In this document: positions 10,142 through 10,557 of the stretch, piece after piece
Numbering within the stretch: position 1 is the first letter of the stretch
How the letters are laid out: each line of letters opens with the position of its first letter
Virus record (IMG/VR): IMGVR_UViG_2534682222_000018
Location: 1 to 18,146 of that record
Source of the DNA: a virus
Taxonomy: Duplodnaviria; Heunggongvirae; Uroviricota; Caudoviricetes
DNA: 18,146 nt
Strand: one strand, 5' to 3'
Notes under the pieces: model-generated
What the model was told of the DNA's origin: nothing
What the model saw: the letters and a program-made list of their open reading frames with translations, nothing else
Databases searched by the model: none
Position numbers and translations under genes: made by a program

Positions 10142-10205
10142 CAGCTCATCGAAACGAAACATCGACAGCTGAGCGAAGTTAGCCAGCGGCGGACAGCAAG
10201 TCGCC

Positions 10206-10218
10206 TGCTTTTTAACAA
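10206..10218 (+). promoter_or_regulatory. boxA-like element in the PL leader
   Basis: TGCTTTTTAACAA matches the rrn-type boxA TGCTCTTTAACAA at 12 of 13 positions, about 70 nt downstream of the predicted PL -10. Confidence 0.35.
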
Positions 10219-10557
10219 CATGCAGATTTACAGCGTCAATGACCTGTTAAGACCCCTACACGTAAACGTGCTGTATCACCGGGTGCGATCCGGTCGGTGA
10301 GAGAGTATCCCCGCGCGAGAGCGAGAACGGCGTGAGAACGGGCAACACTGGCAGGGAGTTGGCGCTGACCAATACAGGGAATGTTATGGGATGTGGTGAA
10401 GGGTTCATGGACGGGAATATGTCGCACGTAAAGCGGCGAGGCCCGAGGAGCTATTGCCGAAGATAAGTAGGCCGAATCGGGTCGAAATGGGTCTCCCACC
10501 TACCACATCGCCAAAGCATTTCTCCCGCATCAGCGGGTAACGACAGAGGGTAAGGGG

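Follow-up and report, generated by a model that had tools for sequence, protein, structure and literature searches.

A boxA-coupled four-way-junction RNA in the pL leaders of phi80 and related lambdoid prophages

We analyzed 18,146 nucleotides (nt) of a Caudoviricetes record (IMG/VR virus record IMGVR_UViG_2534682222_000018, positions 1 to 18,146; hereafter the window), which span the immunity and early left region of a lambdoid prophage. The untranslated leader that begins near position 10148 is the control region of the prophage early leftward (pL) operon. It contains a real, widespread and unannotated structured RNA that is coupled to a boxA in an otherwise lambda-like leader. This core element (10206-10368) is composed of the boxA, a spacer, an outer helix called P0, and a four-way-junction RNA (Table 1). 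A first-pass annotation, made from the letters of the window alone, had proposed an antitermination RNA of the nut-like or put-like type, or a structured RNA of another kind, at this location. The observation of a boxA-bearing structured leader is confirmed: the boxA is conserved and coupled to a covarying RNA, the pair occupies the slot of nutL, and no arginine-rich N was found in the searches described below. Our assessment leans, by a modest degree, toward the element being a nut-like signal for antitermination from pL, with a folded RNA in place of boxB and probably also of N. We infer an antitermination function from the position of the element, its boxA, the terminators downstream and the existing annotation of phage phi80; Nus factor binding and independence from a phage protein are also proposed.

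The structure of the junction RNA was evaluated by comparing its homologues. We fixed a structure of 31 base pairs (helices P1, P1b, P2, P3 and P4) and built a covariance model, called R1, on 13 seed sequences. R1 matches the window at 10241-10357 with 142.2 bits (E = 2e-45). Among the seeds, 97.3% of the pair cells are paired and 9 of the 31 pairs are compensated, compared to 28-44% and 0-2 pairs in controls whose 3' partners were slid. With 55 distinct sequences, 96.6% of the pair cells are paired and 15 of the 31 pairs are compensated (slid controls, 31-47% and 1-5 pairs), a count that includes inherited events, most family members being close kin. None of 500 shuffles of this larger set attained the observed pairing values. 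A set of 43 distinct sequences likewise gave 15 of 31 compensated pairs, and the slid controls over all sets gave 0-6. RNAalifold also returned a multi-helix junction, with compensation at 11 of its 26 pairs. The independent classes that carry the covariation argument are phi80/PA2, L022, L040/L101, L072, L103/L314, L303, L364 and Edno5 (L numbers denote fetched loci). Covariation across related prophages, one of the checks suggested by the first-pass annotation, is thus evident.

Individual helices exhibit the same behavior. P1 reads CUGUU/GGCAG in phi80 and GUAAC/GUUAC in the Edwardsiella phage Edno5, and two of the four P2 pairs swap between A-U and G-C in 10-12 of the 55 sequences. Divergent members that were not used as seeds (Edno5, L072 and L040) fit R1, with P1, P2 and P4 fully compensated. 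The possible stem-loop ACCGG-N7-CCGGT pointed out by the first-pass annotation is present in the apical part of P3 (10278-10294, one base from where it had been placed), although its pairing register is not the one proposed. Covariation favors CACCGG/UCGGUG, which is backed by a compensatory change from C-G to U-A in PA2 and from G-C to A-U in the L303 type. The natural 5' and 3' flanks that form P0 pair at a mean of -13.8 kcal/mol, compared to -7.7 +/- 2.5 kcal/mol when the 3' flank is shuffled, and this pairing is preserved with different sequences in other sequence classes. The helices include many G-U pairs, and therefore the strand of the RNA is the plus strand.

The conserved unit starts at boxA and ends just past GGCAGGGAGUUGGCGCUGA. 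Its flanks on either side are swapped among unrelated classes, such that the sequences 5' of boxA and 3' of P0 switch abruptly between phages. The element occurs in length variants of 109, 111, 117, 118 and 119 nt. In most classes the P4 loop is of the GNRA type, and the junction nucleotides are highly conserved; judging from these sequences, the P4 loops suggest a compact tertiary fold. An Rfam scan, also suggested at first pass, yielded no known family: no model of Rfam release 15 matches the leader at its gathering threshold, and relaxing the cutoff to E <= 10 added only spurious microRNA and snoRNA matches to the operator palindrome. Likewise, ARAGORN identified no tRNA- or tmRNA-like gene.

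The boxA had been described at first pass as a 12-of-13 match to the rrn boxA, and this description is correct. It is located approximately 58 nt past the predicted transcript start, and TGCTTTTTAACAA is the sole match in the window to TGCTYTTTAACAA, even with two mismatches allowed. A single match of this kind is weak by itself, given a chance expectation of 0.82, and the evidence proper comes from conservation. A boxA is present in all 45 distinct homologous versions, 24-29 nt upstream of P1, and 36 of these have at most one mismatch to the rrn boxA TGCTCTTTAACAA (shuffled 90-mers mostly have 5-6 mismatches at best). The copies in PA2 and TL-2011c, both from Shiga toxin (Stx) phages, match UGCUCUUUAACAA perfectly (13/13). 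Records of phi80 already list this site as a putative nutL; the first-pass annotation had therefore rediscovered an annotated, poorly characterized site. The GenBank records M11919, X13065 and JX871397 annotate N, nutL boxA, nutL core and tL1 here (adding 7646 to a coordinate of the JX871397 locus gives the window coordinate). The 278-nt "nutL regulatory signal" of the 1985 record M11919 corresponds to 10169-10446 and encloses the element. No nutR is annotated in the phi80 record.

The element is widely distributed. When IMG/VR was scanned with the P3 apex, approximately 105 of the 120 stretches recovered held the element, and a second scan with P3 left unconstrained gave 100 matching stretches, 73 of them loci not yet fetched. 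Of 5,426 complete Escherichia coli genomes, 227 carry the element, including O104:H4 and O157:H7 strains. It is also found in records of Stx-converting phages, including the Stx2 phages of O104:H4 and of some O157:H7 strains, as well as in phages of Klebsiella, Enterobacter and Edwardsiella and in Enterobacter and Kosakonia genomes. A gapped-pattern scan of GTDB was swamped by chance matches in GC-rich genomes, and the taxonomic range is poorly sampled by it; 5 of the 120 returned loci were genuine, including those of Enterobacter hormaechei and Kosakonia oryziphila. RefSeq annotates nothing at the element in 12 of 12 sampled genomes. Full-text literature searches returned nothing on a boxA-junction RNA (Tanaka and Matsushiro 1985 did not surface). 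The anti-sRNAs AgvB and AsxR of enterohemorrhagic E. coli prophages were considered as candidates and rejected, as they sit at the pR' moron site and not in the pL leader (PMC4104026).

Of 59 non-redundant loci, 53 have a cI-like repressor gene on the strand of the element, approximately 1.6 kb upstream of it, and therefore the element marks pL leaders. Three R1 searches of element-anchored loci (the window and loci L001-L133, then 94 sources) found exactly one copy per locus, and no second copy of the element was identified on the pR side in the window or in any related locus; the window has no further boxA match, and nothing similar is located after its cro-like gene. Of 66 non-redundant loci, 55 have a strict sense-strand intrinsic terminator within 2.5 kb downstream, at a median distance of 507 nt. 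Terminator density is five-fold higher on the sense strand (1.08 per locus) than on the antisense strand (0.21). The corresponding terminator of the window, tL1A, lies about 500 nt past the RNA element.

We also looked for a protein that accompanies the element. When the open reading frames (ORFs) located from -4 to +6 kb were clustered all against all, no downstream family proved universal, and a co-occurring protein partner was therefore rejected. The most common downstream protein, of 69 amino acids, is encoded approximately 1.26 kb downstream in 44 of the 59 loci; because it is not universal, we do not propose it as a partner. Its presumed counterpart in the window is a plus-strand gene at 11011-11217 for 68 amino acids, which has no Pfam match. 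The first genes behind the element in other loci encode unrelated small proteins; in PA2 and TL-2011c, the first gene encodes a Rha-family regulator and follows a promoter-like site and a terminator. In these two Stx2 phages (PA2, L006, 3317-3610; TL-2011c, L011, 2700-3005), three features separate the element and a short hairpin of the lambda type from the regulator gene: the promoter-like sequence TTGACT-17-TATATT, another untranslated stretch that is conserved, and a strong intrinsic terminator (AGACGCGCCAGCGTCTTTTTTT).

A recognizable N protein is missing from nearly all carriers of the element. Ten N proteins (from lambda, HK97, P22-like and phi21-like phages) were compared by phmmer with all ORFs from -4 to +6 kb, and N was found in 1 of the 59 loci, that of an Edno5-like phage. 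Six-frame translations of the whole window, PA2 (1-32 kb), TL-2011c, HK225 and KO-TP1 contained no N at E <= 1. The first-pass statement that no N-type arginine-rich protein is evident nearby thus holds at the level of sequence, but the phi80 records give the name N to the first gene of the window (10558-10854). The 98-amino-acid product of this gene has no match to Pfam N_peptide (unlike HK97 N) and no arginine-rich N terminus, and it belongs to phrog_25091, whose function is unknown.

The distribution of this protein differs from that of the element. Homologues of phi80 "N" are encoded in only 4 of the 59 element-bearing loci. Conversely, among 36 IMG/VR loci that encode such a homologue, the element is present in 15 and absent from 21. 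In at least 8 of the 36 (L155, L158-L160, L162, L163, L168 and L169), a genuine arginine-rich N is encoded one to three genes upstream. Where the leader falls within the inspected stretch (as in L162 and L168), a classical boxA-boxB nutL and a hairpin of the lambda type described below stand ahead of the genuine N gene. Several loci have a terminator between the genuine N gene and the phi80 "N"-like gene, and in other loci the latter is located behind an HK639-type leader. On the basis of this pattern, the family behaves as an ordinary early left gene and not as a partner of the element, and the name N for the 98-amino-acid protein of phi80 is probably a positional misassignment. In the Edno5-like locus L049, a textbook nutR follows cro (boxA, a 7-nt spacer and GCGCC-GAUACA-GGCGC), and the pL leader of the same locus carries a boxA and the junction RNA with no copy of its nutR boxB.

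The leader that surrounds the element extends for roughly 410 nt (approximately 10148-10557). The promoter PL that had been predicted upstream of it is present and agrees with the pL annotated in phi80. We also agree that there is no convincing ORF in the leader. The only plus-strand ORF of at least 40 amino acids has 44 and a GTG start, and the minus-strand ORFs of 87, 50 and 41 amino acids lie inside RNA whose homologues vary by indels of 1, 2, 6 and 8 nt, which break them. The leader is GC-rich, as described at first pass: the GC content is 55-61% at 10250-10550, compared to 25-49% at 10050-10249 (promoter region and leader start), and it is 44-56% in the following gene (10550-10899). More striking than the GC content is a strong purine and G>C skew of the plus strand, with a GC skew of +0.35 to +0.44 at 10300-10450.

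The leader had been described at first pass as a stretch of about 420 nt. It is not a single element: BLAST comparisons with phage records and fetched loci reveal a mosaic of four modules that recombine independently, and the segment at 10380-10520 is a lambda-type hairpin outside of the proposed antitermination RNA. Positions 10147-10191 (module A) are common to HK639, HK225, KO-TP1 and the prophage of E. coli 21AR0133; 10206-10393 to TL-2011c/P13374-type Stx2 phages; 10206-10522 to PA2-type Stx phages; 10387-10516 to HK97 and 933W-like phages, where this segment is directly upstream of a genuine N gene; and 10511-10557 to HK639 and 21AR0133. Module A is kept among phages with differing operators upstream and differing elements downstream, and module D is kept ahead of several different first genes. 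The small hairpin that adjoins boxA (10188-10205) combines with the U-run of boxA to give a weak terminator-like score, and by eye, small hairpins are similarly placed 5' of boxA in PA2 and Edno5. HK225 (L007, 3567-3648), L022, L040, L101 and related loci carry a second conserved untranslated module after the junction RNA (GAGAGGUGCGAAGCGCAAACAGAUUUAUUCCAG-hairpin-CUGGGCUGAAUC). Its hairpin covaries by eye (UCCAUUC...GAGUGGG versus CCCCUUC...GAGGGGG), and it may be another structured leader element.

Module C (10380-10520) is, judged from its sequence, the counterpart of the lambda N-leader hairpin. The pattern R-Y-UUUGGG ... CACCAAAG-Y at its base is conserved, and the remaining stem and the top are exchangeable. 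We collected 50 distinct versions of 30-230 nt, which include at least 8 covarying stem classes and pair at -22.9 kcal/mol, compared to -13.0 kcal/mol when shuffled. In HK97 and 933W-like phages, the stretch that immediately precedes N shares 90.8% identity with module C. In lambda, an equivalent base (GGCUUUGGGGUGUGUG ... CACACACCACCAAAGCU) is found at the same position, between nutL and the ribosome-binding site of N. Both hairpins thus have the stem base YUUUGGGGUG...CACCACCAAAGC (short form YUUUGGG...CACCAAAGC) and follow a nut-type signal, ahead of the first-gene ribosome-binding site, whereas their apical parts differ. The lambda hairpin is the RNase III site of the N leader, and module C therefore belongs to a kind of element that is already known. 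A GC-rich motif (GCGCGCCGGGCGCGGAUAAAUAYCCCGGCA-YUAAC) is present in HK639 (L010, 2060-2100), L049 (8955-8995), L139 and L149, directly upstream of the lambda-type hairpin or the N gene, in phages with a minus-strand gene inserted in the leader.

These comparisons reveal one slot, extending from the pL transcript start to the lambda-type hairpin, that is filled by three cassettes: boxA-boxB accompanied by N, an HK639-type segment, or boxA with the four-way junction. Lambda carries its boxA and boxB in this slot, directly upstream of the homologous hairpin. In 21AR0133, the same flanks enclose a segment that is 92% identical to the HK639 leader and overlaps the 5' 55 nt of the region that carries the HK639 annotation "putL-like antiterminator RNA." This segment of HK639 and 21AR0133 therefore sits between the same flanking modules as the phi80-type element. 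R1 matches neither HK639 (L010) nor 21AR0133, and nothing in the HK639-type leader of L002 reaches E <= 1; in blastn comparisons, similarity to the HK639-type leader is confined to the flanks. The 23.5-31.4 kb region of HK022 contained no module C hairpin, and for this reason we do not extend the same-slot argument to HK022 itself.

The obligatory rrn-type boxA, the downstream terminators, the nutL annotation of phi80 and the lack of N make a nut-like signal the best-supported reading. As RNA polymerase exits pL, the nascent boxA would recruit the host proteins NusB and NusE (S10), as occurs in rrn operons and at lambda nut sites. The junction domain would take the place of lambda boxB and provide the second contact that is given in lambda by boxB-bound N. 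The RNA might touch the polymerase or NusA itself, in the manner of put RNA, or a host protein might mediate the contact. The tethered RNA would render the elongation complex resistant to tL1A, to further terminators and to Rho, and the early left operon protected in this way would be largely non-essential. Module C would have no part in antitermination; its probable role is in processing the RNA or in controlling translation of the first gene.

Several observations weigh against this nut-like reading. Folding of single sequences is only marginally better than that of shuffled sequences (z = -2.05 over the full leader and -1.6 over the element), and therefore the case for structure rests on the comparative data. 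P0 is absent in the HK225 recombinant. The single copy at pL is unlike nut and put, and could point to a role that is specific to pL and differs from general antitermination. Moreover, N proteins are short and diverge quickly, and thus unrecognized analogues could be missed by homology searches. Tanaka and Matsushiro in 1985 and Ogawa et al. in 1988 reportedly named the 98-amino-acid ORF N, and N-dependent read-through in those studies would overturn N-independence for phi80. Finally, NusB/E recognize boxA, and transversions at positions 2, 5 and 6 abolish its function in lambda (PMC3177189); the phi80 boxA has a C5-to-U change, which is a transition.

Among the alternatives, the element could be a classical N-dependent nutL of phi80. 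The 98-amino-acid protein would then be an unusual N that binds P2 (the "nut core") or the whole junction and modifies polymerase together with boxA-bound NusB/E, NusA and NusG. The phi80 records annotate the site in exactly this manner, the order of boxA, spacer and hairpin is like that of lambda nut with an A-rich loop on P2, and the gene is in the N position, right behind the lambda-type leader hairpin. We nevertheless consider this unlikely, given that the protein has neither an N_peptide match nor an arginine-rich N terminus, that its family is rare among element loci and occurs mostly without the RNA, that at least eight loci place its homologue downstream of a genuine N gene, several of them behind a terminator, and that no nutR copy is present in phi80 or the window. 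We regard as similarly unlikely a junction RNA with another job, such as processing, stability, translation control, or a sensor (riboswitch-like or protein-binding) that gates the pL operon, with boxA merely shielding a long leader from Rho. Such a role is consistent with one copy per phage at pL only, with a leader that is long, untranslated, G-rich and C-poor, and with GNRA-type P4 loops and conserved junction nucleotides that suggest a compact fold as in ligand- or protein-binding RNAs. Indeed, boxA alone, without N, protects from Rho termination in nonphage contexts such as CRISPR arrays (PMC7665894). However, no conserved expression platform (a terminator or a sequestered ribosome-binding site) follows P1/P0, the 3' neighbors fall into at least four unrelated classes, and the strict coupling and spacing of boxA, together with the slot swap with an HK639-type segment or boxA-boxB, point to the elongation complex.

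We also weighed whether a minus-strand protein-coding gene, for example the 87-amino-acid ORF at 10236-10499, explains the conservation. PGAP calls a minus-strand coding sequence of 84 amino acids in the matching 21AR0133 leader, hypothetical proteins are entered at the match in two phage records, and an ORF cluster covers the element in 49 of the 59 loci. Against this, homologues carry indels of 1, 2, 6 and 8 nt inside the ORF, the length variants of the element exclude a coding explanation, substitutions in the helices are pairwise compensatory, and the G-U pairs work on the plus strand only. RefSeq lacks a gene at this position in the sampled genomes, and the coding sequence in 21AR0133 covers a different middle segment. 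Minus-strand coding is thus rejected as extremely improbable.

A nut-like signal of the kind we favor has both similarities to and differences from known antitermination systems. Like the lambda nut site, it is the first element after pL, is composed of boxA, a short spacer and structured RNA, and is located directly upstream of an N-leader-type hairpin with intrinsic terminators following. The lambda site has a 15-nt boxB hairpin a few nucleotides after boxA, identical in sequence at nutL and nutR, whereas the phi80-type element has a domain of approximately 137 nt (outer helix and four-way junction). The only boxB-like candidate in this domain, P2, is 40 nt after boxA, forms one arm of the junction and has no second copy in the window. 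Furthermore, the boxA of the element is of the rrn type and that of lambda is of a weaker type, nearly all element carriers are without an arginine-rich N, and there is no nutR-like second copy.

The put RNAs (those of HK022 and the putL-like RNA of HK639) are likewise cis-acting folded RNAs just downstream of pL in phages without N. They consist of two stem-loops without boxA and occur as putL and putR, whereas the element has an obligatory boxA and a single copy. Because the boxA is conserved, we argue that host Nus factors take part, which would differ from put. The same boxA sequence is present in the rrn leader (boxB-boxA-boxC; NusA/B/E/G, SuhB and S4) and in boxA-only targets (suhB and CRISPR arrays), and these Nus targets need no phage protein (PMC7665894). 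The rrn-type systems have no counterpart of the four-way junction. Their complexes act mainly against Rho, in contrast to the operons of the element, which contain intrinsic terminators.

Positions 10147-10900 (from 10138 in one record) share 99.6-100% identity with phage phi80 and with the phi80 prophage that laboratory strains, for example DH5alpha and HST04, carry; the operators and all sequence upstream are unlike phi80 and match the 21AR0133 prophage and HK225. Between cI and pL, at the position of lambda rexAB, is an overlapping gene pair (8772-9766, plus strand). Its second gene encodes a YafO-family type II toxin of 139 amino acids (Pfam E = 3e-16), and its first gene, for 194 amino acids with no Pfam match, may encode the partner of this toxin. 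A minus-strand ORF of 82 amino acids (9788-10036), also without a Pfam match, is directed away from the OL/pL operators (10040-10141) and stops at a bidirectional terminator (9765-9786). Homologues are annotated at the equivalent place in phi80, HK225 and HK639, and the ORF may be a divergent gene under repressor control. The sole Rfam match in the window at a gathering threshold is the Hfq-binding small RNA isrB (11784-11881, minus strand; 38.2 bits, cutoff 35). This match is antisense inside the pL operon, directly upstream of recE; its 3' end is the hairpin GGGCCCAC-UUCG-GUGGGC, and a promoter-like site is present on the same strand at 11922-11894.

Table 1. Positions of the pL leader features and of flanking genes in the window
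Feature	Position	Strand	Remarks
cro-like gene	7549-7794		Divergent from cI
S24-type cI repressor gene	7879-8655	+	Upstream of pL, on the strand of the pL leader
OL/pL	10098-10141	+	Operator-like inverted repeat with 17-bp arms, overlapping the promoter
pL promoter, TTGACT-17-AATAAT	10113-10118 and 10136-10141	+	10/12 match; position of the pL annotated in phi80 JX871397
Module A	10147-10191	+	Conserved 5' end of the pL transcript (AUCGAAACGAAACAUCGACAGCUGAGCGAAGUUAGCCAGCGGCG); 95-99% identity in HK639, HK225, KO-TP1 and the E. coli 21AR0133 prophage
Small hairpin, GGCGG-ACAGCAAGU-CGCC	10188-10205	+	Adjoins boxA on its 5' side
rrn-type boxA, TGCTTTTTAACAA (also written UGCUUUUUAACAA)	10206-10218	+	12/13 match to rrn UGCUCUUUAACAA; "nutL boxA; putative" in phi80 JX871397
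P0, 5' strand (CAGCGUCAAU)	10231-10240	+	10-bp outer helix around the junction domain; minimum free energy fold
Four-way-junction core	10241-10357	+	Covariance model R1
P1	10243-10248/10350-10355	+	
P1b	10254-10256/10340-10342	+	
P2, CACG-UAAA-CGUG (CACGTAAACGTG)	10259-10270	+	Hairpin with A-rich loop; "nutL core" in phi80 records; sole boxB-like candidate
P3	10271-10305	+	Long, best-conserved hairpin; apical part holds ACCGG-N7-CCGGT
P4	10311-10330	+	Hairpin with GAGA loop
P0, 3' strand (GUUGGCGCUG)	10358-10367	+	Minimum free energy fold
Module C	10380-10520	+	Long hairpin with conserved base (AAUGUUAUGGG ... CGCCAAAGCAUU), one-base bulge and variable top
Module D	10524-10557	+	Hairpin CCCGC-AUCA-GCGGG (10524-10537) and Shine-Dalgarno region GAGGGUAAGGGG (10546-10557) of the first gene
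First gene, 98 amino acids	10558-10854	+	Product identical to the phi80 protein annotated N
Intrinsic terminator tL1A, AGCCGCC-UAACCAG-CGGCU UUUUC	10853-10876	+	Annotated tL1A in phi80 (hairpin 10853-10871)
RecE and RecT genes	11923-16436		Downstream of the leader

To our knowledge, only two solutions for early antitermination are known in lambdoid phages: N acting on nut RNA, and protein-free put RNA. The element might constitute a third device, in which a folded nascent RNA and host NusB/E replace N with no phage protein involved, and which controls the early left operons of phi80, of O104:H4/PA2-type Stx2 phages and of many Enterobacterales prophages. It would follow that the 98-amino-acid "N" of phi80 is not the antiterminator. 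We hold this broader proposal tentatively and consider it somewhat doubtful as a whole. Regardless, the analysis calls into question a gene name, phi80 N, that has been in use since the 1980s, some 40 years. RefSeq does not annotate the element, hypothetical ORFs are sometimes overcalled in its place, and Rfam has no family for it; the R1 model could correct this. The element is present in phi80, which widely used cloning strains carry, for example DH5alpha and DH10B derivatives. Because it is located upstream of the early left operon in Stx2-converting phages, the element also bears on the biology of prophage induction in pathogens. A boxA of rrn strength joined to a large folded domain would represent an intermediate design between N/nut and put, and would provide a natural system for examining what N adds beyond the recruitment of Nus factors.

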